Virus record (IMG/VR): IMGVR_UViG_3300028809_000011
Location: 2,038 to 66,037 of that record
Reading direction: 5' to 3' (one strand)
DNA length: 64,000 nucleotides
DNA from: a virus
Under the pieces are notes generated by a model. The model ran no database searches, was not told the DNA's origin, and saw only the letters and a list, made by a program, of their open reading frames with translations. Made by a program: the position numbers and the translations under genes. This document shows positions 1-51,975 of this stretch, piece after piece (the stretch's first letter is position 1; each line of letters starts with the position of its first letter).

Positions 1-369
1 TTTCGGCGCTCAGCGTGGCTCTCAGCGTGTTTTCCCTGGTGGCCGGTATCTGCGTGACGTACCTGCACACGTACCGCAGTGACGAGGGCACCGGTCGGCA
101 CTTCCGGGGCATGGGTCGCGTGCGTCAGCCCGCCGGACGTCACCGGACGACGGCATGACCGACCCGCGCATCGAAGGCTACCGGCAGGCCGTGTCTGACC
201 TGGTGGAAGCGTTTACCTATGAGGACTGCGAGGAATGCGGCCAGGGTATCGACGGCCACGTGATCAGCCCGGACATGTTCGGGCATCCGCACGCATGGTG
301 CACCGGGGGCACCGAGTGACAGCGTCGGCAAGCCGACCGGTGCGCCGGGGGGTCACGCAGTACCGCACG

Positions 370-741
370 ATGACCAGCACCACCCCCCTTGCCCCCACGT
401 CGTTCGTCATCCGTGCCACCCCGCACCCGATTCACGCTGCCTACGTGTACCGGCGGGGGGCATCGGGAACGCCCTGGGTTGTCGAGTTCCACACGATCGA
501 TTTCCCGAGGAAGTACCTGTATGAGGACATGGGACCGGCGTTGAATGCCGCCTCGGAACTGGTGGGCCGTAAGGCGGGCCAGGAGTGGAGGGAGCGGTTC
601 ACCGGCCCGCAGCGGTACGCGATCGGTCAGCAGCAGTGCCCCCGGCTCATGGGGGCCGGAATGGGGGTGTGTGGCCAGAGTCCGGAGGTGGGTTCGATTT
701 GGTGCCGGTGGCACCCGAAAGGAAAGGATATCGAGCAATGA
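370..741 (+). CDS. hypothetical protein
   Basis: ORF in frame of 235..741 taken from internal Met (MTSTTPL...); no recognisable domain. Confidence 0.3.
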   Translation: MTSTTPLAPTSFVIRATPHPIHAAYVYRRGASGTPWVVEFHTIDFPRKYLYEDMGPALNAASELVGRKAGQEWRERFTGPQRYAIGQQQCPRLMGAGMGVCGQSPEVGSIWCRWHPKGKDIEQ

Positions 742-922
742 CCATTCAGATTCCGTGTGAGGTGAGGCACGGGTGCCGGACACCGGCACGTATTCAGGTG
801 GAGGTGTGCGGCGTGAAGGCTCACCAATTCGAGATCACGAACACGTGCCGTAAGCATCTGTCAATCGTGGTCATGTCGGCACTGTCCATCAGCAACGACG
901 TCCGGGTTAGGAGCGCGGTCTA

Positions 923-1333
923 ATGGCATTCACCCTCAAGCGCTGTGACGCCGAGGTGTCCCCGAAATGCCCCGGCCACTCGCCAGTGGGCAAGTTCCCC
1001 GACTGCCTCATTGAGGCGCTCTACGGGGGCAGCTTCGACGAGGAAACTGGGACTGTCGACGGCTTCAACCGTTGGGTCGGCCTGATCATTCAGGCCGAGG
1101 CCGAAACGGTGGACATGGACACGGTCGCTGAGATCCCGGTCACCATCCCCGCCGGTACGTTCCTGATCATCACCGAAAACGATCAGGGGCATATCGGGGT
1201 GGAGACCTACCCGAATGCCGAGGAAGCACAGTCCGCTTTCGACGAATGGGAGCGGCTTTATGGCCTGTGGTGCGAAGCCGAGGAAGCACGAGAGGCAGAG
1301 ATCATGACGTCTAGCGGAAGGATCGGACGGTGA
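923..1333 (+). CDS. hypothetical acidic protein
   Basis: 136-aa ORF; GTGA overlap with the next gene suggests an operon. Confidence 0.4.
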   Translation: MAFTLKRCDAEVSPKCPGHSPVGKFPDCLIEALYGGSFDEETGTVDGFNRWVGLIIQAEAETVDMDTVAEIPVTIPAGTFLIITENDQGHIGVETYPNAEEAQSAFDEWERLYGLWCEAEEAREAEIMTSSGRIGR

Positions 1334-2268
1334 CGATTCGCAATCACAAGGGCCGTTACGTGTCGCTTAAGGCGATGAATGACCGGGTGACGGAACTCAA
1401 GCGGGCCGGGTTCACGGTGTCCTACGCGTGGCGCGAGGACGCTAAGCAGTTCGGCTATCTGTCGTCATCGAACGTCCGGGGTGAGTACGGCATGTTCGGC
1501 CGTAGCCTCACTGTCACCGGGGAAGCCTCGGAGCATTACGGCGAACCGTATGTGTCATTCGATGGCGTGGCTATCGACCGTGACTCATGCGGCCAGGCCG
1601 ACACCGTCGTCCGGTCGAATTACGCGGCCATTCGCCGTGACTACCCGCAATTCCCATGGGTGGACACGTCGTATCTGAACTGCAATGCACTCGGATGTTT
1701 CGTGGCCGACATGGACGATGACACGGCCGGAATGCTTATCGGCCTGGCGGAGTCTTACCCGGTGTACGACGAATCGGCGATGAGTGACCTTGAGCACGAG
1801 GAAATCGACGAATCATGGGCCGGATACATGCGCGGCGAGGTGCGGCATGAGCTTCCCGAGGTGACCTGTACGACGATATGGGATTACCTCGGTGAGGACA
1901 CCGTCACCGAACTGTGGTGGACGTGCGTGTCCGCCAATGTGTTCGGCAACTATCCGGAGCACCGGGGCACCGAGGTCGTGTGGGGTGACGTGGCCGAACG
2001 CGCCCGTGACTTCCGTCCGTACCTGTGTGCGGCCTACTGGGCTAAGCGCACCGGCCAGGACGGCGAGGATAGCGCGCCCATGTACGTGTGGGTTGACCGT
2101 CTGGCACGTCGGCAGCGCGATCGGGCCGAAATCGAGCGCCTTTACCGGGCATGGATGGCGGATGAAACGATCCTCCACCATGACGGCTCATGGCGTGACT
2201 ATCTCAACTCGCGCGGGTGGGTCATCACGGCCACCGGCGCACGACGCAAGGGGGCAGAGGACAAATGA
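1330..2268 (+). CDS. hypothetical protein
   Basis: 312-aa ORF, translationally coupled to its neighbours; no recognisable domain. Confidence 0.5.
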   Translation: MTIRNHKGRYVSLKAMNDRVTELKRAGFTVSYAWREDAKQFGYLSSSNVRGEYGMFGRSLTVTGEASEHYGEPYVSFDGVAIDRDSCGQADTVVRSNYAAIRRDYPQFPWVDTSYLNCNALGCFVADMDDDTAGMLIGLAESYPVYDESAMSDLEHEEIDESWAGYMRGEVRHELPEVTCTTIWDYLGEDTVTELWWTCVSANVFGNYPEHRGTEVVWGDVAERARDFRPYLCAAYWAKRTGQDGEDSAPMYVWVDRLARRQRDRAEIERLYRAWMADETILHHDGSWRDYLNSRGWVITATGARRKGAEDK

Positions 2269-3080
2269 CCAATCCGATGACCATCGATGAGATTCGGAAC
2301 GCGTCCCCGTACGACCTGGCGGATATGGCGGACTGCGATTGCCCCGACAACCGGGAGTCTTCGGGTGCCGCCATGCTGGCCTGTGTCCGTGACTCGGTGG
2401 TGAAGGCTATCCAGGACGGCTCGATCACGCTGGATGACTTCGACGACCGGGGGCAGCTTCACGAAATCGCGGACGGCGCTCCGAGCGTCTACACGCACAC
2501 GATCTGGCGGACGTTCGTGGATCTCGCGGCCTATCAGGAAGAGAACGAGTTCGGCGACGAATGGCCGAATGACCTCACCAAGGCTGCGAGTCTGGCGCTC
2601 TATCAGATCTCCAATCGCCTTGCCCATGCCCTGTGTGAGGCATGGCGCGCGGGGTGGGAGTGCCCTGTGTGCTCGAACCCTCGCGGGGATTACGACTGCT
2701 CGCCGGAGGATTGCCGCGCATGGCAGTGTCCCGAATGCGACGGGTACGACAATACGCACGGGTGCCAGATTGACCAGTGCAAGGCACCTCAGGCGCACGC
2801 TGAGCCGCTACCCGTCCGTACCCCCGGTCTGGCTATGGCCGAGGTGGGCATGCCTGCCAGCGACGTCTACACGGGGCCGGTTGACCTGGCACCGGTGCAC
2901 GATCCGATCCTGTCCCTGATCGATCGGGCCGAGGCCACCGACATGGGTATCCGTGTCGCGCGCCGTGCCAGGATCGCCGACGCGGCAGTCTCCCGGTTCC
3001 GTCGGAAGGTGTGGACGGCGGTTGTCATCCTGGCCGCTGTGTCCGTGCCCCTGGTCTTGTGGGTTGGAGGTGCGTGGTGA
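2265..3080 (+). CDS. hypothetical Cys-rich protein with C-terminal TM helix
   Basis: starts MTNPMTIDEIR; CxxC pairs (CPVCS, CPECDGYDNTHGC); hydrophobic C-terminus. Confidence 0.5.
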   Translation: MTNPMTIDEIRNASPYDLADMADCDCPDNRESSGAAMLACVRDSVVKAIQDGSITLDDFDDRGQLHEIADGAPSVYTHTIWRTFVDLAAYQEENEFGDEWPNDLTKAASLALYQISNRLAHALCEAWRAGWECPVCSNPRGDYDCSPEDCRAWQCPECDGYDNTHGCQIDQCKAPQAHAEPLPVRTPGLAMAEVGMPASDVYTGPVDLAPVHDPILSLIDRAEATDMGIRVARRARIADAAVSRFRRKVWTAVVILAAVSVPLVLWVGGAW

Positions 3081-3172
3081 TTGGTGAGCAGTGGGCCGAG
3101 GTGGTCAAGTTCGCTCTGTTCGTCCTCGGTGGTGTCGCGGTCGTGTGGATCATGTACCGGCGCGACTAGTTC

Positions 3173-3232
3173 CTGATGATCATGCCCCTTAGGTCTGTTG
3201 ATCTAGGGGGCATGATCATGTCCGGGGTCGAT
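3173..3232. promoter_or_regulatory. imperfect palindrome ATGATCATGCCCC...GGGGCATGATCAT in an AT-richer GATC-rich intergenic region
   Basis: inverted arms of about 17 bp read directly; lies in 3100-3870, a non-coding stretch with several GGACAT motifs. Confidence 0.4.
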
Positions 3233-3879
3233 CTTGGAAATTCGGACATTTCGGACTTTTACCTTTTGCCCGATTTATCACGATATATGGCGATATTTAG
3301 TCATAAGTTGGGTAATACTGGACATGTCCGTTTTGTCGGAGTGGGTCAAGATCATCAGAGCCGGGGCCGTCGGCAGGCTTAAGTTACCGGCGGGTATCAA
3401 GATCTTTGGGAAGTGCTTGACATGATCTTGCATGTCCGTTTCGGCCCGGTTTGCGCATGGCCTCTGAGCTGCGGAAACTCCGCTGAGCCATGATCGTCGA
3501 CATCTACATATCCCCGGTACCAAACTTGGAGATCTTGGCTCAGCGTGGCCCTCAGTGCCCTTAAACGGCCTTTCTGACCTGCGTTATGGGGCACATGTTC
3601 ACGGGTGCCGGGCATGATCAACTGAACGGCCGTTAAGGTGCCAGGCGTGGCGGATCAAGACGTGTTGATCATGAGTCGATGCGGAGCTTCCTAGGACGCT
3701 CCGACATTCAGTCAAGATCATCGATATCTGCAACTGTCGGGTTTCATCACCGCCCCTGAACTGGGCATATCCGATTCTTCCGACACGGGATGATCTACCC
3801 TGGTATGGCACATGTGCCCCTAGTGGGGTAGGATTGCCCTGTAAAGGCAACACGGACCGGCTGACAGGAGACAGGGACC

Positions 3880-4056
3880 ATGATCACCGACATGATCGCC
3901 GCGAAGATCGCAAAGCTCATGATCAACGCCAAGACCCGCACACTCGTCGCCAAGATCGTTGAGGCCGCCATCGCCGAGCGGACCCGCGACATCGTGATCA
4001 CACTGGAAGACGACGGCCAGGCTGACGCGGCAGAGCTGATCAAAGCCAACTACTGA
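3880..4056 (+). CDS. small hypothetical protein (58 aa)
   Basis: ATG preceded by GGAGACAGGGACC RBS-like sequence; below the 60-aa ORF track cutoff. Confidence 0.45.
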   Translation: MITDMIAAKIAKLMINAKTRTLVAKIVEAAIAERTRDIVITLEDDGQADAAELIKANY

Positions 4057-4245
4057 GATGCCAGGGGCCGGGAGACCGGCCCCACCCTTTTGCCCCAAAA
4101 ATGGACATATGGCGATATATACGTCACCAGGTGAAATATCCCGATATTTCCGGTCAAACCGGACATTCACACGATCAAGGGCCGTGACCAGGGAAAATGC
4201 TGCATTCCCACTGGTCACGGCCCCAGGTGGCCGGACGGCTAGAGA

Positions 4246-4863
4246 TCAGTCATCGTCGTTGTCGTCGCTCATGTCGTCCTCACAGTTTCGGCACTCATCG
4301 ACGTCCGCCGGGTTGTTGGAGTAGCCGCACGCCGAACACGTGCGCTTGCGGACGGCGGGGATGATGTGCGCGTCCGGGCCGGGGTCGGCCGTCTCCACCT
4401 TCACGTCGGCCGTGGTGATCTCCAGATTCGGGAAGTCACCACCGTCACGGCCGAACCGACGGCGGACGTCGTTGACACTGTCGTACCTGAGGTTTGCGGC
4501 CAGGGACTCAATCTGACGCCACACGGTGGAATCGGACGGCGCACCCGCCTTGCCGCGCGACGACGTCTTGACATCCCACGACGCCACCAGGGACACCGTG
4601 ACGCGGTGCCCGGTCTGGACACGGCGCAAGCCCAGTTCGGCCAGGGCCGAATCGACCACGCCGCAAAGGTTGTGCGCCTCGGCGTACCGGCCCGTGACGG
4701 CCACGACGTCACGCCGGAACGTGTCAAGCTCGGCCCTCAGCGCGTCGTACGCGGCCCGGTCCACCGTGTCTGTACCCGAGGTGTCCCCCTGGCCGTCCGT
4801 CGCCTCTGCGGCGCTCTCAGGGGCCGTGTCGGGCGTGGCCTCGGGGTTGGTGCTCTCAGACAT
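4246..4863 (-). CDS. hypothetical protein with CxxC...CxxC and acidic tail
   Basis: 205-aa ORF; C-terminal CSACGYSN...CRNCEDD zinc-ribbon-like motif then poly-D. Confidence 0.5.
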   Translation of the reverse strand: MSESTNPEATPDTAPESAAEATDGQGDTSGTDTVDRAAYDALRAELDTFRRDVVAVTGRYAEAHNLCGVVDSALAELGLRRVQTGHRVTVSLVASWDVKTSSRGKAGAPSDSTVWRQIESLAANLRYDSVNDVRRRFGRDGGDFPNLEITTADVKVETADPGPDAHIIPAVRKRTCSACGYSNNPADVDECRNCEDDMSDDNDDD

Positions 4864-4970
4864 GCTGTGTCCCCTTCCCAGGGATCATCGTTGCTGGTCA
4901 CACGTCGTTTGATCGTGTGCTTCCGGGCACGGCTAACCAACCGTGGTCATCCGTGCCCGAAAGGTAGGGA

Positions 4971-5294
4971 TCAACCCACGTATTCCGGCACACAATCGGC
5001 GTACTCGGCAGACGGAAGCGCCAACCTCACACACTCAGCCGGATTGCTCGGGACGATGATGAGACGACCGTCCCCGGTCACGATGTGAGTCGCACCCTCG
5101 TGCCTGGTCACCGTGGCCGTGTCCCCCCGGTCATGGTCGCTGGTGACCGTGATCACCGGGGCGGGCGGAACCGGCCGGGTTCCCATGCCGTTGATCGTGG
5201 CCACCAACCCGGCACCGATCATGAGCCCGGACGTGCCGACCAAGGCCAGCATGACCGCAGCGAACTTCCCCGAAACGATGTGACCGGCGTTCAT
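4971..5294 (-). CDS. hypothetical membrane protein
   Basis: 107 aa with N-terminal hydrophobic helix; 4-nt overlap with the upstream gene. Confidence 0.45.
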   Translation of the reverse strand: MNAGHIVSGKFAAVMLALVGTSGLMIGAGLVATINGMGTRPVPPAPVITVTSDHDRGDTATVTRHEGATHIVTGDGRLIIVPSNPAECVRLALPSAEYADCVPEYVG

Positions 5295-5671
5295 CGTCCA
5301 CCCTCCCCACGCGTGATCTTACGGATGTCCTGCCAAATGCCCATGATCCGCTCCGCCTCCTCCACCGTCGCCGACGGGTCCGCAAGCCACGCCGCAACCG
5401 AGGCGTCCATGTCCCGCACGTACTCCGCCAGACGCGCGGCCATGGCCGAATCCCGGTCCGCGTCTGCCTCCCAACCCCGGTCACTACGCGCGGCCAGGGC
5501 CGGGGGGACGATGCCCCCACCCGGCAGACGGACCCAACCGGGGGGAACCTCCCCGCGCATGGCCATGTTGTCGGCCTCGGTCCGTCGGCGCGGCATCGAC
5601 GTGTGCTCCAGACACCCCACGTGCCCCTCGACACACACCACCCGCGCGGGATCGTGCGAACCCGTTTCCAT
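5291..5671 (-). CDS. hypothetical protein
   Basis: frame of 5291..5737 from internal Met METGSHD. Confidence 0.4.
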   Translation of the reverse strand: METGSHDPARVVCVEGHVGCLEHTSMPRRRTEADNMAMRGEVPPGWVRLPGGGIVPPALAARSDRGWEADADRDSAMAARLAEYVRDMDASVAAWLADPSATVEEAERIMGIWQDIRKITRGEGGR

Positions 5672-5765
5672 GTCCTGTCTCCCTTCCTCGCCGTTCCTCG
5701 ACACATGTCGATTCAGCCACACCCGCGACCCGTTCACGTCAACGGGTGTGACAGGACTGACACCG

Positions 5766-6113
5766 TCAGAAATCGATCACCGCACGCGCACCGGTCTCAA
5801 ACCGGTAACCCGCCTTGCCACGGACGCCGGGGATACGCCAACTGAGCACGTAACCCACCAGGTCATGACCGGGGTACGTCGTGGTGACCACGTTCACCGG
5901 CACCGGTGCCATGTCGGTGAGGACGAACACGGCCAGGGTATCCGGCACCTCACCCGAGGCCGATTCGTACGCCTGGTCATAGAACATGCTCATGATCATG
6001 CGCATCTTGCCCGTGACCCACCCGACGTGACTGCCCCCACGGGACACACTCACCAGGTAGTCAGCACCCTCGGTGTCGGGGTCCGAGATCCACGTACGCT
6101 CGTGAGCGCTCAT
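5766..6113 (-). CDS. hypothetical protein
   Basis: frame of 5766..6197 from MSAHERTW; ATGA overlap with the upstream gene. Confidence 0.4.
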   Translation of the reverse strand: MSAHERTWISDPDTEGADYLVSVSRGGSHVGWVTGKMRMIMSMFYDQAYESASGEVPDTLAVFVLTDMAPVPVNVVTTTYPGHDLVGYVLSWRIPGVRGKAGYRFETGARAVIDF

Positions 6114-6388
6114 GATCGGTTGCCCCCGTCCCGTTCGGCGCGAACCTTGGTGATCATGGCTTGTGCGGCCTCGGCCACCTCGGCACGAGTCCGGCACGCC
6201 TGCCCGTGCTCAGCGTTCCAGCCCTTCACCGTCGGCCGGAAGTTGCGCGCGAGCGTCATCCCGGTCTGCCCCCATGTCCGGTACGCCATCAGCCGCGCCA
6301 TGATCGCAACCGCGTGCACACCCCCACCGGTCACCACGGCCACCACGGGCACCGAGGCGCTAGCCATGTCCTCATCGAACGTCGTCAT
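6110..6388 (-). CDS. hypothetical protein
   Basis: frame of 6110..6454 from MTTFDED. Confidence 0.4.
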   Translation of the reverse strand: MTTFDEDMASASVPVVAVVTGGGVHAVAIMARLMAYRTWGQTGMTLARNFRPTVKGWNAEHGQACRTRAEVAEAAQAMITKVRAERDGGNRS

Positions 6389-6398
6389 GATCACTCCC

Positions 6399-7394
6399 TC
6401 AGATCTCGATGTCGGCCGTGATGCGGGCCAGATTGCGACGGACCACGGCCTCACTCACGGCCAGGGTGCCGGGGTGGGTGTCCTCACCGGTTCGGGTGAA
6501 CGTGCTACCGCACCCCAGGCACACCGTGCCCCCGACCGGCAGGCTACGGGCCGAAACGGTCTCGCACCCGTCCGAGCAGTCACCAGGGCGCACAGCGGCA
6601 CGGCGCACGTAGGTGTCAGCCTCGCTCGGATCGGCCGGGAGGAAGGTCACCGGGCACCCCAGGGCAGCCACGATGTCACAGCCCGTGTCGGTCAGCCGGT
6701 AGGCCACCAGGGAGCCGGGCGTACCGTCGTTGTCCCCGGTGACCTCGGCCAGGATGCCGCGTCGGATCAACGCCCTAACGGTCGCCTTGGTGGCCTTGGT
6801 GCTCTCCGGAAGGATCACGTTGTGCATATGCCATGCGTCCACCTGCCCGCGCATGGCGGACACGGCCAGGGCAACCGACACCATCGGGGCCGACATCTTG
6901 TGCGCCTTGACCACGTTGAACGTAGGCACCTCGGCCACCGGCTCAAGGGTGAGCAGGTCGGTCAGGATCTCCACCCCGGACACCTCGGCGGGGACGTCGT
7001 CCACCATGCGACCCGAGGCCGTCCACACCTTTCCGACCATGGCAGCGTCACCCCACCGGGGGGCACGGGTCTTGTCACCCCACGTCTTACCCGCGTCGGC
7101 GAGGATCGCTTCACGCTCGGCGAGCTTTGCGGCCCCCGCCTCTCCCTTCGTCTGGAAGGGCTGTCCGACGGCCTCACGCTCAGCGTCGGTCACGTCGTAA
7201 GGCGAGTGGTAGCCACACAGGGCCGTGCCCTCGACGGCCACGGGGAGCGTGGCGGTCAGGATGTGAACGGCGGGGGTGTCACCGTGGCAGGTGAGTTTGG
7301 TTCCCGTCTCGCCGTAGGCCAGCCAGCCACACGGGGTGCCCTTGGGGGCCGTGATCACCGGTCGGAATTGAGTCTTTTCGCTGCTCATGCCCTG
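6399..7394 (-). CDS. hypothetical protein (first gene of leftward operon)
   Basis: frame of 6399..7481 from MSSEKTQF; the large plus-strand ORF 5085..7403 is its antisense shadow. Confidence 0.5.
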   Translation of the reverse strand, partial: QGMSSEKTQFRPVITAPKGTPCGWLAYGETGTKLTCHGDTPAVHILTATLPVAVEGTALCGYHSPYDVTDAEREAVGQPFQTKGEAGAAKLAEREAILADAGKTWGDKTRAPRWGDAAMVGKVWTASGRMVDDVPAEVSGVEILTDLLTLEPVAEVPTFNVVKAHKMSAPMVSVALAVSAMRGQVDAWHMHNVILPESTKATKATVRALIRRGILAEVTGDNDGTPGSLVAYRLTDTGCDIVAALGCPVTFLPADPSEADTYVRRAAVRPGDCSDGCETVSARSLPVGGTVCLGCGSTFTRTGEDTHPGTLAVSEAVVRRNLARITADIEI

Positions 7395-7481
7395 TCTCCC
7401 TAGCTCCGTAGCCACCTGATGTGGCGCTTGAGACACAAGAGTCCCATGACCAGGGCTTATTGCCAAACTCCGAGAGCACAT

Positions 7482-8173
7482 TTAAGGGAACCGTGACCCA
7501 ACCGTTACCAAAAAACTTTGCCCCCACCAGGCAACACGACATACACGCAGCCCATACGGGGTGAGGACCACAACACCCCCGCTACCCTGGCCACCTACCC
7601 CCGGCGAGGACAGGGCAGCCATCCCCACCCCCCAGGACACCACGGGAAACAGGCTGAGAGCCACGCTGATGGCCTAACGGGGGCAGGTGCCTATCCGTAC
7701 CTAGGTAGGGCAAGGATCTTGGCTCAGACCGGGGACCGGGGACAGGCTAGGGCAGACACCCCACGGCCCCCCATTCAAGGCCAAGGGGCCAATCTGCCCC
7801 CAATACGGACACACCCCCACATATCCCCACCCATGTGGGCAAAACGGACATACCAGGACATAGTAGTACAAAATAGGACACACTATGACATATCGGTACA
7901 AAGTGTACATATGATGCAAATAGGGTATATGCAGATGATCATGAACAAACATGGTCACATCCCCATCCAACCTGCCAAACCGAGCAGGCAAACACAAAAC
8001 GGACATTTCCAGGCAAAAAGGGTATGCAGAGTGCTACCCCCAGTTAGCATGATCATCTAGATCTAGACAACCATTAGGGTCAATGTCTACCTTTCTGGTG
8101 GGATTTAGTTTTCGGACATATAAGGCGACCTTCCGATTCTGTATAAATCTGTGACTAAACGATCCAAAACGTA
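7482..8173. promoter_or_regulatory. about 690-bp AT-richer divergent intergenic region carrying repeated AAACGGACAT-type motifs
   Basis: no convincing ORF; motif copies near 7804, 7843, 7990, 8111; flanked by divergent operons. Confidence 0.5.
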
Positions 8174-8554
8174 GTGCACTACGTAGTACGGGGTCTTTGG
8201 GACACTTGCCCTATGACAGACATGGTTCGGATGAGCCCAGACGACTTCAGCAACCTGTCCCAGCAGATGCGCCTGGCCAACACTCAGCGGCTCAAGGCGG
8301 TCCTGGACAGTTTGGAGCCCTACATCGACGGCAGCCTGGGTGCTGTGTCCCCACCGCATGTGAACGCGTACATCAAGGTGTGCCGGGAGCTTGGCCTGAT
8401 GTGGGACTCCTACGGGCCTCCTAGGGCTGTCGAGGAGGTGAAGGGTGCGGACGAGGAGGCCATGGTGCTCTCGGCCCGTCAGGAGGCTGTGGTGGCCGAG
8501 TTGGGCAAGCTGCGTGAGGTGGGGATGAGGAACCAGGGGCGGCGGGCTTCCTAG
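8174..8554 (+). CDS. hypothetical protein
   Basis: 126-aa ORF starting right after the regulatory region. Confidence 0.4.
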   Translation: MHYVVRGLWDTCPMTDMVRMSPDDFSNLSQQMRLANTQRLKAVLDSLEPYIDGSLGAVSPPHVNAYIKVCRELGLMWDSYGPPRAVEEVKGADEEAMVLSARQEAVVAELGKLREVGMRNQGRRAS

Positions 8555-8993
8555 GAGGCTAGGCGGTATCCGATGAGCCGGTTGACTCCGCTGATCAGTT
8601 CGACTCGGTGGCCTGCGGTGCTGAGCCAGCGGGTGAACCTGTTCTGGGTGGGGATGACTGCGGCGTTGGGCAGGTTGGTTGTGCTCCAGGCGCGGTAGGC
8701 CCAGTAGATCTCGTGGATCTTCACCTGGTCGCTGGGGTTGCCGGTGGGGATGAGGTTGGCCTGTGCCCAGGCTGTTGGGCCGGTGGTGTTGGGGCAGCGG
8801 CATGAGGGGCACTGGTGTTCAAAGAATTGCATGGATTATTTCTATCACAAGATCAACCGGGAAGCGGGAAGTGTGGAGGCGACGGAGCGTGTGTGTGGGG
8901 GGCGTGGGCCTATAAGTACGAACACCTCCATTTGCATTATCTAAGCTCCGCAGGTCTTCCCGTCTTCCCGGTTGATCTTCATCTTTGCTGGTC

Positions 8994-9118
8994 AGGGTGT
9001 GCCGGGAAGTTGCCGGGAAGTGGGGAAAACCCGGTAAGTACTTCCCGGTTGATCTTGAACCCCCTGTTGCACATGTGGCATAGATGGGGTAGTGTGTGGG
9101 AGGAGTTAAGAGTTGGTG
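8994..9118. repeat. left copy of 125-bp inverted repeat with internal CCGGGAAG repeats
   Basis: reverse complement of 63876-64000 matches base for base over 125 nt. Confidence 0.85.
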
Positions 9119-10752: not shown

Positions 10753-11304
10753 CTACGCTGCCGAGGCTGTAGGCCCGGCCTGACCTTGGTAGTGCGACGA
10801 CAGCCCCTCAGAGCCGTACGGACGCTCTGAGGGGCTTGTCATTTGGAAGAAGACAAGCTGGCAGATCGGCATCCCCGCCTCTAGCCTGATCGGCGCGGCC
10901 GACAGGTTCTTAAGCTCCAGGGTGATCTGTCCCCTGAAGCCGGGATCGATGAAGCCTGCCGTGGTGTGAACGATCAGACCCTTGCGTGCCAGGGATGACT
11001 TGCCGTTCACCTGGGCGACCAGGTCACGGGGGATGTGGACCTTCTCCACGGTGGAGGCCAGCCAGAACTCCGAGGTGTTCATCGGGTCGTCGTCGACCTT
11101 GCCCTTATCCCAGTCGGCCAGGTCGCATTGCCAGATGCCATAGGCGTTGCGAATGTGGTGCGGCGTCTCCACCAGGACGTCGGCGGCCAGGGTCAGCTCC
11201 AGGGACGCCGGTTGCAGGCGTGCCGGGTCGAACCCTGGGTCCACGATCAGCGGGTCCTCCAGGCGCTGTAGGGCGGCCCGGATGTCCCGGTCGGACAGGA
11301 TCAA
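10753..11304 (-). CDS. dcd: dCTP deaminase
   Basis: ILSDRDIRAAL N-terminus, GFIDPGFRGQITLELKN core and ERPYGS...YQGQAGPTAS C-terminus typical of Dcd; TTG start with GGAGGAAGG RBS. Confidence 0.85.
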   Translation of the reverse strand: MILSDRDIRAALQRLEDPLIVDPGFDPARLQPASLELTLAADVLVETPHHIRNAYGIWQCDLADWDKGKVDDDPMNTSEFWLASTVEKVHIPRDLVAQVNGKSSLARKGLIVHTTAGFIDPGFRGQITLELKNLSAAPIRLEAGMPICQLVFFQMTSPSERPYGSEGLSSHYQGQAGPTASAA

Positions 11305-14108
11305 CTGCCTTCCTCCACCTTCTCCACCCACCACACCATCGCGTTGATGGCGCTGTCCTTGCGCTTACGCAGGATGTACTTGCCGAAGAACCGGTCGGCC
11401 TTGCCGTGGAGCATGTGCCCGAGCTTCTTCGGGGTCGGCGTGAGCCCGTCGTCGTCGGTGATGAAACACCGTGACCACCGGTCCACTGACGTGCCCATGA
11501 CCCAGTCGACCTGCGCGGAGGCGTGGACCTGGCGGGCCATCTGCTCGGACGGGCCGAACACCTCGTACCACTTCGCCAGGAAGATGCCCCACTCTTCCTC
11601 GTCGGTGTCGCGGGCGGCCAGGTCGTCGGCGTTGCCGAGGAACCCGGTCAGGCCGTGGAAGACCAGCAGCCCGCCCATGATCTGTGCCCACTTCGTGAAC
11701 CCGCGCATGGTGTGCGACTCGTCTTTGGCGGCACCGTCCTTGACCCATGCCTGAACGAGGATGAGCAGGTGCCACAGTAGGTTCTCCCGGTTGCCCGGTT
11801 CCCTGATCCAGTCGGAGAACTGGCCCATCTCGAACTGGCGCAGCTCCGGCTTGGCCATCTTCGGGTCCAGGCGCACCATCACCGTCCGGGAGGCCATGTC
11901 CCCGCCGACGGTCAGGCCGTTGCCTGACGCGAGCCACAGCCGGTCGTTCGTGGCTTCGATGTTGCGGGACGCGCCGAGCATCCGGTCGTCCCACTTGTCC
12001 TTGGTGATCAGCGTCGCCAGGATCTCCGAAGAGATCGTCGACCCCTCCTTCAAGTTGTCGAACACGACCACCGGTGAGGAGTTCCCAGCCAGGATCGACG
12101 TGACCTTCTTCTGAAGCTCCTCGGTCCGTCCCGGCAGAACCTGGGACGTCTGCCCGTACAGCAGGCCGATGGCGTCGGTCAGGTTCGTCTTGCCTGAGCC
12201 ACGGGTCGTCGCGGTGACCATGCCGAACGGGGTCGTCGTCTTCACGTACGGGCGCAGCATCGGCGACAGCAGCAGCGCCATGTAGTTGGCGAAGTCGCCA
12301 GCCGACGACCAGCAGAACTCCCCGAACACCTTCGAGAACACGAACTCACGGGACCGGCGGACCTGCTCGTCGCTGATCGTCTCCGGCACCCTGGCCACCG
12401 TCACCGCAGGGCCGTAGAACAGGCCGGTGGCCTGGTCGAACCCGCAGTCCTGGATGAGGGTGCCGTCGGGGCGCAGCGTCGGTGTCCCCACCACGCCGGT
12501 CAGCTCAGGCACCGTCGGCCAGTACGTCTTCGACACCACGGCACGCAGGTGAGTGATTGCCGGGGCGCACGCCTTGCGCACGGGCGGGTTGTCCTTGCCG
12601 CCGCTGACCCACTTGAACGTGCGGGTGTGTTCGGCCAGCAGCATGTTCAGCAGGTCGGCTGTCACCGGCACGACAGTGACCTCGGAGCAGGCCGAGTTAG
12701 TCTTCGGGTGCACGTGGACGAGCTGTCCATCTTTGACGTACAGGTTCGGGATGAGGCCGGTGGCGATGACCCGGCTGATCTCCAGCATGGCTTCCTGTTC
12801 GGAGCCAAGGTCGATCTCAGGGAGGTCATCGTGGGCGGCTGCCACCGCAAGAACCTGCCCGGTCTGGACGGCCAGCGCCGCCTGCTCAGGCTGCTGGTGA
12901 TCCACGGCCTGGTTCAGCACCGGCGTGGCAGGCGCGGCAGGCTTGACCAGGCTGGTCACATCTACCGGACGGTTCAGCTCAGGAAGCTGGCTGCCGAATC
13001 CCTCCGCCGCGAGCTGCTTGGTTGACTGCCGGAACGCCTCGCTGGACAGGCTGCCGAAGTTGATCAGCGTGTAGGCGGCGTGCTTGTTGTACGCCTTGCG
13101 AGCCTGGAAGACGGACTCGGATGACCAGGTGTAGAACCGGTCCTCGTCACGGGCATAGCCGGTGGTTGCGCTATGTTCCGCGCCGCTCTCCGATCCGACG
13201 CGCAGCCAGTAGTCGGTGCCGCCCTTGGTCTTCACATAGGTGAAGTGGCCCGCCAGAATCCAGTTCCAGTCGCCGCGTGCATTGAGGTCGTCGCCGGGCA
13301 GGATGACCTGGGTGCCGTTGGTGTTCAGGGGCCGGGTCGTCTTGGAGAACTCGCGCGGCGCGGGCTTCGGAATCTGGTCGAAGAGGTTCTCGACGATCGA
13401 TTCGATCTCCGCGTAGGCGTAATGCTCGTAACTTGGCGGCTCCATGATGTGGCACGGACGGGCTAGGCCCTGCTTGCGGTTGATGGTGCCGGGGATGCGC
13501 AGGACGCGGGCCATGTCGCCCACTTCGCCGCCGACGTGCCATCCGAGCTGCTCACCGGCGTGGACCAAGATCTTCTGGATCTGCTCGGACACTGTCTTGG
13601 CGCGGGCCAGTGCCTCGGGGGTCCGGATGTCCTGGGGGTCGTCGAGAAGCCACCACGGGTACACCCCGCCACCGGAGTGGACCCAGATGGTCGGTTCGGG
13701 CAGGCCGGAGGTGTCCACGATCGACATGGCCGTGGCGGTGTCGGGGGGCAGGAGCTTGGAGGTCTTGTGGCCGGGGCCTGCGATGTCGAGGTCGGCTGCG
13801 AAGCCGGGCAGCGTGAAGCTGTCACCCTCCTCACCGCGTCCGCGCTTGCCGTCCTTGATGGGTATGCGCGACAGGGTGGTGGTGCGCAGGTAGATGCCCT
13901 GGGGGTTGTCCCGCTCTAGGGTGAGGACGTTGGCTACGGCACCATCGACGTCGCTGCTGGTGAAGCCTTCCCAGTTGCTGGTCGATCCGACCCAGATCAG
14001 CCCAGGCGAGGAGGCGTGGATGGTCAGGAGCCAGCGCCGGACCTCGCTGATGTCGACACCAGATGTGCCAAACTCGCCAGATGAGTTGACGGGGGTGCTG
14101 TCAAGCAC
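11301..14108 (-). CDS. bifunctional primase-polymerase / helicase (P4/D5 family)
   Basis: 935 aa; N-terminal prim-pol-like region; C-terminal Walker A TRGSGKTN; GTG start with AAGGGAG RBS. Confidence 0.85.
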   Translation of the reverse strand: MLDSTPVNSSGEFGTSGVDISEVRRWLLTIHASSPGLIWVGSTSNWEGFTSSDVDGAVANVLTLERDNPQGIYLRTTTLSRIPIKDGKRGRGEEGDSFTLPGFAADLDIAGPGHKTSKLLPPDTATAMSIVDTSGLPEPTIWVHSGGGVYPWWLLDDPQDIRTPEALARAKTVSEQIQKILVHAGEQLGWHVGGEVGDMARVLRIPGTINRKQGLARPCHIMEPPSYEHYAYAEIESIVENLFDQIPKPAPREFSKTTRPLNTNGTQVILPGDDLNARGDWNWILAGHFTYVKTKGGTDYWLRVGSESGAEHSATTGYARDEDRFYTWSSESVFQARKAYNKHAAYTLINFGSLSSEAFRQSTKQLAAEGFGSQLPELNRPVDVTSLVKPAAPATPVLNQAVDHQQPEQAALAVQTGQVLAVAAAHDDLPEIDLGSEQEAMLEISRVIATGLIPNLYVKDGQLVHVHPKTNSACSEVTVVPVTADLLNMLLAEHTRTFKWVSGGKDNPPVRKACAPAITHLRAVVSKTYWPTVPELTGVVGTPTLRPDGTLIQDCGFDQATGLFYGPAVTVARVPETISDEQVRRSREFVFSKVFGEFCWSSAGDFANYMALLLSPMLRPYVKTTTPFGMVTATTRGSGKTNLTDAIGLLYGQTSQVLPGRTEELQKKVTSILAGNSSPVVVFDNLKEGSTISSEILATLITKDKWDDRMLGASRNIEATNDRLWLASGNGLTVGGDMASRTVMVRLDPKMAKPELRQFEMGQFSDWIREPGNRENLLWHLLILVQAWVKDGAAKDESHTMRGFTKWAQIMGGLLVFHGLTGFLGNADDLAARDTDEEEWGIFLAKWYEVFGPSEQMARQVHASAQVDWVMGTSVDRWSRCFITDDDGLTPTPKKLGHMLHGKADRFFGKYILRKRKDSAINAMVWWVEKVEEGS

Positions 14109-16218: not shown

Positions 16219-16455
16219 TCAAGGCGTCATCACGTCCCGGTTGGCCAGGGGAAGCGGGTAGTCCCGGCCCACCCGGACCCACATCTTGCCCTGGGTGCGG
16301 AAGTCCTGGAGCTGCCAGTTCTGCCCGCAGTCGCATTCGACGACGGAGCCCACGCCGACGGCGTTGTTGCCGTCCTTGTCGGCCTGGGTGAGGTGGAATT
16401 CGTGGAGCTTGATCGGGCACGGGCATGGCGGCTCAACCCGCTTGATGAGCTTCAC
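16219..16455 (-). CDS. small Cys-containing hypothetical protein
   Basis: 78 aa with CPCP...CDCGQNW. Confidence 0.35.
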   Translation of the reverse strand: MKLIKRVEPPCPCPIKLHEFHLTQADKDGNNAVGVGSVVECDCGQNWQLQDFRTQGKMWVRVGRDYPLPLANRDVMTP

Positions 16456-16916
16456 GGCTTCTCCTGCCCCTTGTAGATGAATGTTCCGAGCACGCCCAGG
16501 CGCTCGTGTCGGTATTCGCCTCGGTCACAGGCGGCTTCCAGCTCATGCACAGGAATGCCTGATTGCCTGGCAGCCCGGCTGATGGGGATAAGTTCCTGAT
16601 AAGCATCTCCTGGCACTGATTCCAGCGCCCGATCCGCACCCCAGACCCACTCCCCAACCCGGATCGCCGTGTCGATGTTCATGCCCCTTTCCAGGGCCTC
16701 CCACTGACGCAGGCTCTCGCCCTCCACACCGATCAGGCGAGCCTGGGCGTTTCGGGTCATACTCAGCTTCTTGCGCAATTCCGCCAGTTCGCCACCCAGG
16801 ACCGCAGAATAGCCAGCCTTTGCCAGCTCAGACTCGGTCTGGTGGATCACCTTGCTCATGGTACTCCTCTGCAACTCCTGCATGTCAAGCATCAGAAGAG
16901 TACCCCAAACGGACAT
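16452..16916 (-). CDS. HTH DNA-binding protein
   Basis: 154 aa; last gene of the leftward block, divergent from terminase. Confidence 0.5.
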   Translation of the reverse strand: MSVWGTLLMLDMQELQRSTMSKVIHQTESELAKAGYSAVLGGELAELRKKLSMTRNAQARLIGVEGESLRQWEALERGMNIDTAIRVGEWVWGADRALESVPGDAYQELIPISRAARQSGIPVHELEAACDRGEYRHERLGVLGTFIYKGQEKP

Positions 16917-16936
16917 GTGGTGTATATGATCAGATC

Positions 16937-18346
16937 ATGGGACTTTCCCTGGCAGAGCGGTATGCCCTAGAGCTGACTCCCGAAGAGCAGCGTCGATGGG
17001 TCGCTTCGCTGACCCCACAAATGCTCAAAGAGGTCGCGCGTCAGGAATGGTGGTGGACGGCACGACCCGAGCAGATTCCCCCACCCGGAGACTGGAGCCT
17101 TTGCCTCATCCTTGCCGGACGAGGCTTTGGTAAATCAAAGCTGGCCTCCGAATGGATCGTGCAAAGGCTACTCGACCACCCCGTGGACCGGCACGGCTTC
17201 CGCACCGAATGGCTCATCATCGCCGAGACGCTTTCGGACGCCCGGACCATTTCGATCGAGGGTCCGTCGGGTGTCCTGCGCGTGCTGGAGCGCAGGGAGA
17301 TCCCCTACAAATACATCAAGCACCCCAAGCCGCAGATCCTTGTCGGGGACCACAAGTCAGTGATCTTCTTCGAAGGTGCGGACGGTGCCGACGTCGGCCG
17401 TGGCTACAACGCCGCAGGTGCCGTCCTCGACGAGGTGGCTAAGTGGAAGAAGCCGCGTGAGTCCTGGTACGAGGGCATCATGCCGTCCCTGCGCGCCGAC
17501 CTGGTCGGCGATCACCCTCGGACGCTGGTGGCCACGACCCCGAAGCCCATCGACATCCTGCGTGAATGGGTTCAGCGTGACGACGGCTCAGTTCGACTCA
17601 TTCGTGGATCGACATTTGACAATGCCGCCAACCTGAGTTCCTTCACCCTGGATGAGCTTGACCGGCGCTATGCCGGGACGCTGATCGGGCGACAGGAACT
17701 TTACGGAGAGTTGCTGGACGCTCGCGACGGAATGCTGTTCGCCTATCGTGACATTGACAATCACCGACTTGAATCCGTTGACGATGTTGAATTCACTCAC
17801 ATCACTGTGGGTGTCGACCCGACCCTCACCGAGGAAGGCGACCTCATGGGTGTCGTCGTCGTCGGCCGGGACGCCAAGAACCACATGTACATCCTGTCGG
17901 ACGAGTCCGTGCCGCTGACCTCACGCGAGGCAGCCCGCCACATCTGGCGTGTCTTCTGGCGCAACGGTGCCGACACCGTGGTCATCGAGGACAACCTGGC
18001 CAAGCGGTGGATGACCGACGTCCTGCGCGACAGCTACGTGGAGCTGCGCGACCAGGACAACCTGTTCCCGCCTGGCACATCCGCACCGATCAAGACCACC
18101 GACTCCCGGATCGGCAAGAAGCTGCGGGCCGAGCCGGTGGCCCTGAGGTACGAGCAGGGCACCGTCCACCACGTCGGGACGTTCTCCAACTTGGAGAACG
18201 AGATGCTGAACTTCGACCCCACCGACAGTCACAACTCGCCCAACCGCATGGACGCCATGGTCCACGCCGCCCGGCATCTCATGGCAGGCGAGAAGCGCCG
18301 CATTCGCCTCGTCGACCCACAGTCGTTGTGGATTCCCACCCGTTAG
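16937..18346 (+). CDS. terL: terminase large subunit
   Basis: ATP-binding-loop-like motif ILAGRGFGKSKLASEW; C-terminal nuclease-like region; internal ATG start at 16937 just after an AAACGGACAT motif. Confidence 0.85.
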   Translation: MGLSLAERYALELTPEEQRRWVASLTPQMLKEVARQEWWWTARPEQIPPPGDWSLCLILAGRGFGKSKLASEWIVQRLLDHPVDRHGFRTEWLIIAETLSDARTISIEGPSGVLRVLERREIPYKYIKHPKPQILVGDHKSVIFFEGADGADVGRGYNAAGAVLDEVAKWKKPRESWYEGIMPSLRADLVGDHPRTLVATTPKPIDILREWVQRDDGSVRLIRGSTFDNAANLSSFTLDELDRRYAGTLIGRQELYGELLDARDGMLFAYRDIDNHRLESVDDVEFTHITVGVDPTLTEEGDLMGVVVVGRDAKNHMYILSDESVPLTSREAARHIWRVFWRNGADTVVIEDNLAKRWMTDVLRDSYVELRDQDNLFPPGTSAPIKTTDSRIGKKLRAEPVALRYEQGTVHHVGTFSNLENEMLNFDPTDSHNSPNRMDAMVHAARHLMAGEKRRIRLVDPQSLWIPTR

Positions 18347-18382
18347 GCTGCTTAGCGCCCTTATGTCCGATACGCTTGTTTC

Positions 18383-26490: not shown

Positions 26491-26705
26491 GCCAGAACCC
26501 TTCCTGAAGCGATGAAACGGATGTGACCACGACCCCAGTCGGTGTCGTCAGAAGGGTCGTAGGTCCAGCCCTTCTTGGCTGCCTCACGCCTGGCCGCGCC
26601 GATCTCGTCGTAGGTGGACGTAAACGGCGGACAGTCGCAGTCGGGGCCGTCGCACGAGAGCACGATGTACAGCGCTCCACTCATCCCAAACCTCCTAAAA
26701 ACCAA
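26487..26705 (-). CDS. small Cys-containing protein co-transcribed upstream of rsr
   Basis: 72 aa; CDGPDCDCPP motif; 4-nt overlap with the rsr start. Confidence 0.5.
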   Translation of the reverse strand: MVFRRFGMSGALYIVLSCDGPDCDCPPFTSTYDEIGAARREAAKKGWTYDPSDDTDWGRGHIRFIASGRVLA

Positions 26706-26745
26706 TACCCCGCTAGTCTCGGAAGACAGCGGGGATCAATGGTGA

Positions 26746-26835
26746 GTGCCCGAGGAAATCAGTCGGCTACGGGTGTGGGTCGCGAGACCTTTTGCGAAAA
26801 GATAGCGAAGTACCCGTCGCCTGGGCACCGGGCAC
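26746..26835 (-). ncRNA. candidate small structured RNA (unit A) bounded by GUGCCCG...CGGGCAC terminal stem
   Basis: the same 7-bp terminal pairing recurs at units B and C; internal CUUUUCGCAAAAG hairpin; no tRNA-like module. Confidence 0.3.
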
Positions 26836-26859
26836 CCAAACGTTAGATCCCCAGAGTTT

Positions 26860-26990
26860 AAAGCGATCTCGGATTCCCGATTATGAGTCGGGGTGAGCGC
26901 CATGCTCACTCTGCCATGAGTGGCAGAGACAAGAATCGAACTTGTGAAGTAACCGAGGTCATTGGCACCTGGGAATATATGAAGTTGTGT
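26860..26990 (-). ncRNA. tRNA-like element: T-arm, closed acceptor hairpin, D-arm-like, CAU anticodon-like hairpin
   Basis: minus strand reads ACAAG-TTCGATT-CTTGT, then CTCTGCC-ACTCAT-GGCAGAG, then GAGC-ATGGC-GCTC, then CCCGA-CTCATAA-TCGGG. Confidence 0.35.
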
Positions 26991-26994
26991 GTTG

Positions 26995-27066
26995 CGCCCC
27001 CTACAGGATTCGAACCTGTATCCCCGGCTCCGGAAGCCGGTCCTCTATCCGTTGAGGTAAAAGGGC
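26995..27066 (-). tRNA. tRNA-Arg(CCG)
   Basis: cloverleaf by hand; acceptor pairs with 2 G-U; loop TTCCGGA; T-loop TTCGAAT. Confidence 0.65.
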
Positions 27067-27070
27067 TTTG

Positions 27071-27143
27071 CGTCCCCACCAGGAGTCGAACCTGGGCCTG
27101 TGGTTCCGTAGACCACCGTCTTGTCCTCTGGACCATGGAGACG
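27071..27143 (-). tRNA. tRNA-Arg(ACG)
   Basis: anticodon stem GTGGT/ACCAC, loop CTACGGA; T-arm CCAGG-TTCGACT-CCTGG; unusual D-arm. Confidence 0.6.
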
Positions 27144-27146
27144 TGT

Positions 27147-27297
27147 GGATGCCCGAGTATAAGTCGACTAACCTGCGGCTTTCGCCAGCGCTCTGCCAAC
27201 TGAGCTACAGCAGTGTTTCCACCACCGAAGGGACTCGAACCCCTGACCTCTTCATTAACAGTGAAGTAAGGCTCGTCTTTGGCACCGGGCATCCGTT
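27147..27297 (-). ncRNA. candidate Y-RNA-like permuted tRNA mimic (unit B, tRNA-Asn-derived)
   Basis: order on minus strand: 9-bp terminal stem GGAUGCCCG/CGGGCAUCC; Asn-type anticodon arm; T-arm; acceptor 3' strand CGGTGGT, loop GGAAAC, acceptor 5' strand ACTGCTG; canonical D-arm. Confidence 0.45.
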
Positions 27298-27310
27298 TTT
27301 AAGTTTTCAA

Positions 27311-27466
27311 GTTGTAGCGTGCCCGAGGAAAAGTCGGTCCGGCTTCGTAGGCGCGTCTTCCATTTCCGCCACTTCGGCTAGGCCGAAGGCAGGATTTGAA
27401 CCTGCACTCCCTTTCGGGACCCTCCTGTATAGAGAAGAACTCCGTACCTGGGCACCGGGCACTGCA
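27311..27466 (-). ncRNA. candidate Y-RNA-like permuted tRNA mimic (unit C, class-II tRNA-like)
   Basis: terminal stem GUGCCCG/CGGGCAC; GAAA-capped variable-arm-like hairpin; T-arm GCAGG-TTCAAAT-CCTGC; closed acceptor CTTCGGC-CTA-GCCGAAG; D-arm-like GCG-GAAATGGAAGA-CGC. Confidence 0.4.
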
Positions 27467-27472
27467 TTCAGT

Positions 27473-27547
27473 TGGAACGGTTGACCGGACTCGAACCGGC
27501 GTCATCTGCTTGGAAGGCAGAGGTTCTGGCCATTGAACTACAACCGC
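27473..27547 (-). tRNA. tRNA-Gly(TCC), CCA encoded
   Basis: acceptor GCGGTTG/CAACCGT (G1-U72); loop CTTCCAA; T-arm GCCGG-TTCGAGT-CCGGT. Confidence 0.65.
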
Positions 27548-27625
27548 GCAGGTCCCCGAGGAGTCGAACCCCGGTCTTTCCCAGCTTTGGAGGCCAGGTC
27601 CGTCCCACTTGACCCAAGTGCAAGG
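27548..27625 (-). pseudogene. tRNA-Trp(CCA)-like element lacking an acceptor 5' partner
   Basis: T-arm CGGGG-TTCGACT-CCTCG and loop CTCCAAA present, but the 5' region is a CACTTG-GGT-CAAGTG hairpin. Confidence 0.35.
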
Positions 27626-27922
27626 CGAGGAGTAGTCGCGGTGAGGGGGGCTTGTAGATCGCCAAATGATTTGAAGTACCCCTCGGTGCTTGGCACCGCC
27701 TTGCAGGACCCACTCTACTCACATATCTGCCAGACCTGCAAGCCCAATCCTGGGTCTTTTTATCCGACCTTCCGTGCATAAGTTGCAAAAGCGGACATAG
27801 AGGGTAACATCGGGAATGCAAGCTGATCATCGCTGGCTGCGGGCCGGGTGAACAGGGAGCGCTGCACCACCTACGCGCGTAACACCCGTCCACCTGCCCA
27901 TCCCCACGGAGGGATATCAGCG

Positions 27923-37279: not shown

Positions 37280-37310
37280 GAAAACCGGACATAGCCTCTA
37301 AGATGAGGAC

Positions 37311-50462: not shown

Positions 50463-50498
50463 GTTTCGTACCTTCCCATGCACGTATGACACGTTCCG

Positions 50499-50850: not shown

Positions 50851-50851
50851 G

Positions 50852-51974: not shown

Positions 51975-51975
51975 G

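Follow-up and report, generated by a model that had tools for sequence, protein, structure and literature searches.

At the middle promoters of phage T4, a phage-specific box (the MotA box of AsiA/MotA sigma appropriation) stands in for the -35 element, ahead of a -10 element of the usual sigma70 type, and times a class of genes. Here we describe a box that can be compared with it, in a 64,000-nt stretch of DNA (positions 2,038 to 66,037 of the virus record IMGVR_UViG_3300028809_000011; hereafter the window), a high-GC (~64%) tailed-phage genome of an uncultured soil actinophage that is a member of a widespread clade. The element in question is a recurrent box, AAAAC-GGACAT (a cGGACAT half-site with a 5' A-tract), which is found at late-gene promoters and in two control regions. 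Unlike the MotA box, which is centred at -30 and keeps a fixed orientation, the promoter copies described here are centred at about -18 to -24 or at ~-41, and one of them is reversed; the host is actinobacterial, three of the four promoters are leaderless in type, and neither MotA nor AsiA homologues were matched in Pfam or PHROG scans.

Dual regulators of the XRE (Cro/C1) protein class are well known (e.g., lambda cI at PR/PRM and the C-proteins of restriction-modification systems): they are small helix-turn-helix (HTH) proteins for which a site abutting the -35 element activates and a site overlapping the core promoter represses. The candidate binder of the box has this fold. While such regulators bind 14-20-bp dyads, the copies in the window are mostly asymmetric A-tract half-sites, 10-bp palindromes and phased tandems, and the candidate carries a second, winged-HTH domain. 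RinA, ArpU and LtrC are late activators encoded beside the terminase genes of Gram-positive siphophages; they share with our locus a regulator gene next to the terminase and a site in the promoter from which the genes for packaging and structure are first read, and differ from it in protein family, in having a co-directional rather than divergent gene, and in the several late promoters involved here. Short direct repeats ~10 bp apart are also bound cooperatively by small winged-HTH proteins in the Xis-type filaments (lambda Xis, L5 gp36), and the C-terminal domain of the candidate and two other phage proteins belong to this HTH_17/MerR-like type; here, however, the proteins scanned include no integrase, there is no attP, and the arrays occupy regions that control transcription.

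Among the actinophages, the stoperators of Cluster A mycobacteriophages (L5 gp71) are asymmetric 12-13 bp sites repeated in intergenic DNA, one of which overlaps a promoter. They number 20-30 or more, occur in both arms of temperate phages and hold a single orientation relative to transcription, whereas the window has only 4-5 sites in its unique region, in mixed orientation, and lysogeny genes were not found among the proteins scanned. The start-associated sequences of Cluster K (SAS/ESAS) are likewise short conserved words just upstream of several gene starts; they lie a fixed few bases from the start and include the ribosome-binding site, while the box stands at varying distances, upstream of the predicted transcript start, and most of its copies precede no gene. 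Cluster O mycobacteriophages hold 17-bp palindromic repeats together with predicted leaderless SigA promoters (PMC4351075). They offer a further case of a repeated intergenic actinophage motif without an assigned binder, alongside SigA-like promoters predicted to be leaderless, although their motif (TGTTCGGNNNCCGAACA) is fully palindromic, exceeds 30 copies and is not tied to late promoters (PMC4351075).

We propose, with a probability of roughly 0.6, that the box is recognised by a sequence-specific DNA-binding regulator which the phage itself encodes, for which an XRE protein encoded next to the large terminase gene (terL) is the candidate and activation the favoured sign. Four observations carry this reading: the enrichment of the box, its placement, its positional conservation, and the -10/leaderless architecture of the promoters that hold it.

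All copies listed in the preliminary description of this DNA are present in the sequence (some coordinates were 1 or 2 off), and the recurrence that it reported in two AT-richer regions was borne out for the box in its extended form. The regions are a part of an inverted repeat, S (at 7482-8173), and the central non-coding region of the early segment (3081-3879 and 4057-4245), which have GC contents of 0.56-0.61 against ~0.64 overall. A chance or compositional origin (e.g., from GAC-ATG/ATC codons, or from start codons in the form ATG-TCC) would suit the bare 7-mer CGGACAT, since it is only ~2-fold enriched (22 observed against 11.9 +/- 3.5 expected, a count reached by 1 of 100 shuffles) and many of its coding copies are simply in-frame Asp-Met (GAC-ATG) or Asp-Ile (GAC-ATC) codons. 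For the box as a whole we regard this origin as next to impossible: the extended form AAAACGGACATA has, at <=2 mismatches, 11 matches against 1.25 +/- 1.14 expected (0 of 100 shuffles reach 11), ten of which are non-coding; of GGACATA there are 8 copies in the ~10.3 kb that are non-coding (0.84 expected) and none in genes; and the positions are conserved in many relatives. The excess over composition and the conservation in related phages (at promoters, in S and in the central region), which the preliminary description had named among the checks on its motif, were both found. A weight matrix, built from the box copies themselves and then scanned over the window, gave 30 matches at a score >=9 (10.5 +/- 3.4 in shuffles), and all 11 matches at a score >=18 were non-coding. 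In the unique 55 kb only three sites reach a score >=18, and these lie upstream of terL, the capsid gene and the tape-measure gene; taken together, this region has just 4-5 box sites, all at promoters, while the others cluster in the two control regions. A literature search with the motif string returned primers only.

The promoter copies and the genes that they precede are as follows.

16903-16916, plus strand: box at the terL promoter, CCCCAAACGGACAT, with the GGACAT core at 16911-16916 (about -26 to -21)
16925-16930, plus strand: -10 hexamer of terL, TATGAT, 8 nt after the box and followed by 6 nt and the ATG at 16937 (leaderless-type)
16937-18346, plus strand: terL, large terminase gene, T4-type
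18363-18369: reversed box, ATGTCCG, followed by 1 nt, the -10 hexamer TACGCT (18371-18376), 6 nt and the ATG at 18383
27772-27810, plus strand: capsid promoter, with the -35 element TTGCAA (27783-27788), a 16-nt spacer and the -10 hexamer TAACAT (27805-27810)
27924 (ATG) to 29653: major capsid protein gene
37279-37313, plus strand: tape-measure promoter, with the box GGAAAACCGGACAT (GGACAT at 37287-37292), 6 nt, the -10 hexamer TAAGAT (37299-37304), 6 nt and the ATG at 37311
37311-39077: gene of a tape-measure-like protein

The preliminary description had placed copies 25-60 nt upstream of late-operon starts. The association with promoters held at terL and the tape-measure gene, where GGACAT lies 19-26 nt from the start, but the distance did not hold at the capsid gene, whose box is ~126 nt upstream of the ATG, with a predicted 5' leader of roughly 105 nt. 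The reverse-oriented copy that it reported at 18360 is real (18363-18369) and marks the start of the gene at 18383, a small gene that follows terL and precedes the portal gene. By prediction, the box falls within about -31 to -19 at terL, capsid and tape measure, in one orientation, with the single sites at about -26 to -19, and about -20 to -15, reversed, at the post-terL gene. The terL box is kept in seven relatives (L081, L082, L083, L003, L004, L110 and L111), the layout of reversed box, -10 hexamer and ATG is the same in L081, L083, L003 and L004, and the tape-measure promoter retains AAAAACGGAC and TAAGAT in L001 and L002.

In three of the four promoters (terL, 18383 and 37311) the -10 hexamer stands exactly 6 nt before the start codon (6-7 nt in relatives), with no Shine-Dalgarno sequence in between; an in-frame TAA is present upstream of the terL ATG in L003. 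The arrangement TANNNT, 6-7 nt, ATG is kept at the terL, post-terL and tape-measure genes in most of the clade members examined, including those that lack GGACAT. Considering that chance would put a TANNNT at any one offset with a probability of ~0.006, its persistence across the clade points to real -10 elements of leaderless-type sigmaA promoters, and from hexamer, spacing and conservation we predict the three starts to be actinobacterial sigmaA-type leaderless promoters. Leaderless-type promoters (TANNNT, 6-7 nt, ATG/GTG) also occur at 44264-44279 (lysis cassette) and at 16848-16863 on the minus strand (XRE gene), and the wider clade keeps this layout. A strict sigma70 consensus scan of the window, which is blind to promoters that consist of a -10 element only, gave 1 match (an irrelevant one) against 3.2 expected.

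As this promoter layout is kept in relatives without the box, the box is an add-on element rather than a part of the core promoter, and it is an addition specific to one subclade, in which relatives of 45-90% protein identity carry it at the same promoters. The suggestion of a phage-specific promoter or activator site therefore survives in its second half: a regulator or activator site is the best reading, while the box is not the promoter itself, since the -10 element and its 6-nt spacing persist in relatives without it and most copies have no -10. The further suggestion of a start-associated sequence had to be abandoned, because the distance to the start varies, one copy points the other way, and the box, which precedes the predicted start of transcription, would be outside the mRNA.

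The box could still be a core promoter element read by RNA polymerase, i.e., a phage-specific substitute for the -35 contact of a phage sigma factor or of a modified sigmaA. Three promoters hold it in a fixed orientation 6-8 nt from the -10, and those of terL and the tape-measure gene have no recognisable -35. We consider this very improbable, in view of the copy at 18363, which is reversed and nearer to its -10, of the capsid copy of relatives, which lies 17-19 bp further upstream than in the window, and of more than ten conserved copies without a -10; furthermore, a -35-like contact 6-8 nt from the -10 does not agree with the geometry of the sigma70 family, and the Pfam and PHROG scans of the phage proteins gave no match to a sigma factor or RNA polymerase gene. 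The orientation flips (at 18363, and in L100 within S) and the variable spacing suggest that a DNA-binding protein of its own, and not a sigma factor, contacts the box, and the conserved promoter-less copies, the palindromes and the phasing extend this argument to an RNA or translation signal.

Five other candidates were tried and rejected. If the motif were a start codon with its following codons (ATG-TCC-GTT), the open reading frames (ORFs) at 27798 and 37292 would have only 7-12 codons, and an in-frame stop is present in L004. The remaining four were dismissed by reading the sequence: the actinobacterial DnaA box (TGTGGACAA), whose TGTGGA part is missing from the motif; a sigma54 -24/-12 promoter, as the GC element is missing and sigma54 does not occur in the host phylum; an extracytoplasmic-function (ECF)-type -35 (GGAAC, 16-17 nt, CGT); and a -35 hexamer with a normal 17-nt spacer.

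The capsid promoter bears on the sign of regulation. In the window, L001 and L002 its box (GGACAT at 27793-27798) sits in the 16-nt spacer, 6 nt before the -10, and in the window a decayed copy, CCGTGCATAA, is found upstream at 27772-27781. In L003-L006, L110 and L111 a good copy immediately precedes the -35 position (in L110 and L111, where a -35 is lacking, it is at about -43 to -38). The same protein site may instead be that of a repressor, occluding the late promoters until it is titrated or inactivated, either as the stoperator-like immunity of an integrase-less temperate phage or as a temporal repressor. This alternative is possible, though we hold it to be clearly the less probable one. 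It would agree with the sites at -26 to -15 in the -35/-10 spacer of four promoters, with the capsid promoter of the window, which has a good TTGCAA and TAACAT and should fire unaided, with the weak copy at about +4 to +17 of the lysis-cassette promoter, and with XRE-type proteins being mostly repressors. It fits less well with the capsid site of most relatives, which at ~-41 occupies an activator position and in L110 and L111 has no -35 beside it, and with the few unique-region sites, which in their mixed orientation are unlike stoperators. When the non-structural proteins were scanned with Pfam and PHROG (from a gene list short of some small genes), no integrase, partition ATPase or recognisable immunity repressor was found, and the traits that together typify a stoperator system (>20 dispersed sites, a single orientation, a temperate genome with repressor and integrase/parABS) are not seen here. 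As a separate observation, a block in the capsid 5' leader, CTGGCTGCGGGCC (27843-27855), is kept in 7 of 7 aligned relatives and has no Rfam match.

Away from the late promoters, the copies group in S and in the centre of the early segment.

7375-9118: inverted repeat S, 1,744 bp; its second, inverted copy begins at 63876 and runs past the window end
7799-7812, plus strand: variant copy CCCAATACGGACAC in S, matched at <=2 mismatches and by the matrix
7838-7910, plus strand: best-consensus copy AAAACGGACATA, heading the phased array
7987-8006, plus strand: copy in the near-invariant block GGCAAACACAAAACGGACAT (invariant columns across 5 relatives; inverted in L100)
8106-8119, plus strand: T-tract variant TAGTTTTCGGACAT, ~100 nt upstream of the 113-aa gene (ATG at 8213)
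3218-3257: central site A, with ATGTCCG on the minus strand at 3218-3224 and then TTCGGACATTTCGGAC (GGACAT at 3244-3249)
3320-3334: palindrome GGACATGTCC with a one-sided A-tract (AAAACGGACATGTCC on the minus strand), kept in L106 and L107
3431-3442, minus strand: copy GAAACGGACATG, 8 nt from a conserved TGTCAAG (plus-strand TTGACA), kept in L106, L107 and L108
4098-4109, plus strand: copy AAAATGGACATA, position kept in L106 and L108
4156-4167, plus strand: copy AAACCGGACATT, position kept in L106 and L108

None of these copies has a TANNNT at the matching spacing. Their position, and mostly their orientation, is conserved in relatives whose neighbouring proteins are 60-81% identical, while the flanks diverge; the T-tract variant, for instance, is conserved in position as TTTTGGGACA, and at site A two to three tandem copies with 9-bp spacing are present in L107 and L108. 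The array consists of seven GGACA-like hexamers phased by 10 bp (at 7846, 7856, 7866, 7876, 7886, 7896 and 7905; 0.2 expected per 75 nt), is comparable in L104 and weaker in L098, and as an exact string is absent from IMG/VR. Overall, the box thus occurs as A-tract half-sites, as GGACATGTCC palindromes, as tandems 9-10 bp apart and as the seven-unit phased array, and palindromes, tandems and 10-bp phasing are arrangements typical of protein sites.

Other repeats share these regions. Two terminator-like hairpins (4065-4085 and 4180-4225) bracket ~95 nt of non-coding DNA that hold two boxes, and CGATAT(A/T)T repeats (3280-3300 and 4106-4150), including a shared 12-mer, ATATGGCGATAT, accompany the central GGACAT copies. 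A second motif, (A/T)(A/T)GATC(A/T)(A/T), found at 3177-3925, 7936, 8048 and elsewhere, is the most enriched non-coding word (CATGATCA has 20 occurrences against 1.8 expected; ATGATC has 26 in non-coding DNA against 4 expected) and reaches its highest density in the 0.8 kb of non-coding DNA at the centre of the early segment. A perfect 16-bp palindrome, ACGTAGTGCACTACGT (8169-8184), lies upstream of the 113-aa gene and is near-invariant in five relatives, with one substitution (in L102); it is probably the operator of a different dimeric protein. A third repeat family, CAAGATCAACCGGGAAG, occurs at 8848-8864 and, on the minus strand, at 8964-8980 and 9041-9057, with a tandem TGCCGGGAAGT at 9000-9021. 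It adjoins, on the upstream side, a sigmaA-like promoter (TTGCAC at 9067, 17 nt, TAGTGT at 9090) that reads out of each S copy into the unique region.

The arrays allow a further interpretation, in which they are origin iterons or a small-terminase (pac) site and the copies at promoters have a secondary role, or tie late expression to replication or packaging. At least three phased direct repeats are expected of iterons, and seven are found (7846-7910), in an array that is conserved in L104; the array region is mildly AT-richer; no terS gene adjoins terL; and the array stands directly upstream of the 113-aa gene (8213-8554), whose three-helix product (AlphaFold2, AF2, pLDDT 84) has T4-type small terminases as its top Foldseek matches. 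These matches are non-significant (E 0.08-0.5), though, the protein has no evident DNA-binding domain, the neighbouring genes carry no initiator signature (an adjacent initiator gene is absent), and sites of this kind would be unexpected at capsid and tape-measure promoters with conserved -10 spacing. We hence regard an origin or pac function as doubtful.

Because the region at 7482-8173 lies inside S, it occurs twice in the genome. The repeat is perfect over its 1,744 bp (window 8994-9118 is the exact reverse complement of 63876-64000), and its surroundings were resolved with two MEGAHIT contigs of one sample: L086 (55,039 bp) corresponds to window 8978 to 64016, and L092 (11,177 bp) to the reverse complement of window 9118-7375, 1,940 bp outside the window, and window 1-7493. 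Their layout implies a circular map of ~67.6 kb, in which the two inverted S copies stand between a unique region of 54.8 kb (9119-63875) and an early segment of 9.3 kb. L106, an independent 107-kb metagenome contig (NCBI) of a relative, holds the right arm, S' and the early segment in order on one molecule, with the early segment oriented opposite to the window, which may be due to flip-flop isomers or to an arbitrary choice in assembly. Homologues of the S-encoded gene are found almost only on 1-2.5-kb contigs, and those of an early-segment gene (205-aa protein) mostly on 1-10-kb contigs, several of them of 8-10 kb. Such short contigs would be expected from a conserved repeat that breaks short-read assemblies, and indicate that relatives share the repeat architecture. 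The window start (2-44) is also linked with 7635-7677, inside the first S copy, by a 43-nt inverted repeat that is imperfect (84%).

The regulator that we favour would be encoded beside terL.

16452-16859, minus strand: candidate binder, 135 aa, XRE-type HTH with a C-terminal winged HTH, divergent from terL

The box is placed between the divergent terL and XRE promoters, the latter consisting of TTGACA (16888-16883), 19 nt and TACCAT (16863-16858) in a conserved layout (TTGAC(A/T), 19 nt, TANNNT, 7 nt, start codon). The AF2 model of the protein (pLDDT 89, pTM 0.80) has an HTH of Cro/C1 type at the N-terminus and, at the C-terminus, a winged HTH of beta-alpha-alpha-beta-beta topology; Foldseek matched it to NatR, HigA2, Aca2 and P22 c2 (probability 0.9-1.0, best E 0.0095), the Pfam HTH_31 match (E 0.023) stays below the cut-off, and its 73 homologues are labelled as XRE-family regulators by the Joint Genome Institute (JGI). 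From the fold and these labels we predict an XRE (Cro/C1-type) HTH regulator, and its adjacency to and co-occurrence with the box (its synteny with terL is kept in L109-L111) make it the most likely candidate binder. Elsewhere in the genome, a stand-alone 92-aa protein (47713-47991, minus strand) matches Pfam RNA_pol_A_CTD at 32 bits (cut-off 23.8), i.e., the C-terminal domain (CTD) of the RNA polymerase alpha subunit, and alpha subunits in the PDB at E 3e-5; host transcription that depends on UP elements or activators could be disturbed by it.

What we infer is that a protein binds the box, which protein this is, and in which direction it regulates. Single sites inside four late promoters of host sigmaA type would let the regulator time the virion and packaging genes. 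Activation is preferred as the promoters would be weak as -10 elements only, and because the capsid site of most relatives, at about -43 to -38, takes the usual position of a class-II activator. At the arrays in both S copies and in the 0.8-kb early non-coding centre, the same protein may shut down or autoregulate early transcription, or be buffered there.

Several points weigh against this proposal. The link of the XRE protein to the box is one of adjacency and co-occurrence. L109 keeps the protein (41% identity) and has no box, and when XRE homologues were compared, their recognition helices did not co-vary cleanly with the presence of the box; further candidate binders are two HTH_17 proteins, a WhiB protein, a second XRE-like protein and the alpha-CTD-like protein. 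The site position differs between promoters (-24 vs -41), which is unusual for a single activation geometry, and a spacer site at about -24 is a classical repressor position, so that the regulation could be of either sign. Finally, the arrays adjoin a gene with weak resemblance to a small-terminase fold and could serve packaging or replication instead.

A bolder version of the regulator reading, which we find improbable, would give one cGGACAT-reading phage protein two jobs: replacing the missing -35 contact at the leaderless late promoters, and polymerising on the 10-bp arrays in both S copies, which would act as a sink or timer, or couple copy number or packaging status to late transcription. 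If true, this would be a sigma-appropriation-like mechanism in an actinobacterial host, with the arrays next to a small-terminase-like gene.

The capsid protein of this phage shares only 37-48% identity with its counterparts in phages of Gordonia, Microbacterium and Actinoplanes, metagenomic relatives are numerous, and no DNA match to deposited phages was obtained (megablast and blastn against a phage collection). A 360-aa ORF had no relatives among viral contigs. In the early segment, the N-terminal part of a 271-aa protein (2265-3080) matches an 'OCR-like antirestriction protein' of Streptomyces phages (39-48% identity), which gives a hint of the host group and suggests that the DNA between the repeats may act against host defences. 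The window holds 24 tRNA genes (within 26700-27700 and 50498-54294), and tRNAs alone were matched in the Rfam scan. Several tRNA-like stretches of the GGTTCGAA type, none of which is called by ARAGORN, lie between three tRNAs upstream of the capsid gene, and a weak Rfam tRNA match is present at 27220-27283. The replication gene that we recognised is the following.

11301-14108, minus strand: primase/polymerase

The mechanism that we favour for the box is familiar in kind, as repeated operator or activator sites of a phage regulator, and its value lies in the annotation that it provides and in a concrete regulator candidate. For phages of Actinobacteria, the in-silico case for leaderless late promoters is made unusually clear by the comparative data. 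A small late regulon, made up of terL, the portal operon and the genes of capsid and tape measure, is delimited by the motif, and with it the probable early/late switch of a widespread clade of uncultured soil actinophages, whose members have neither a DNA match nor a close protein relative among deposited phage records.

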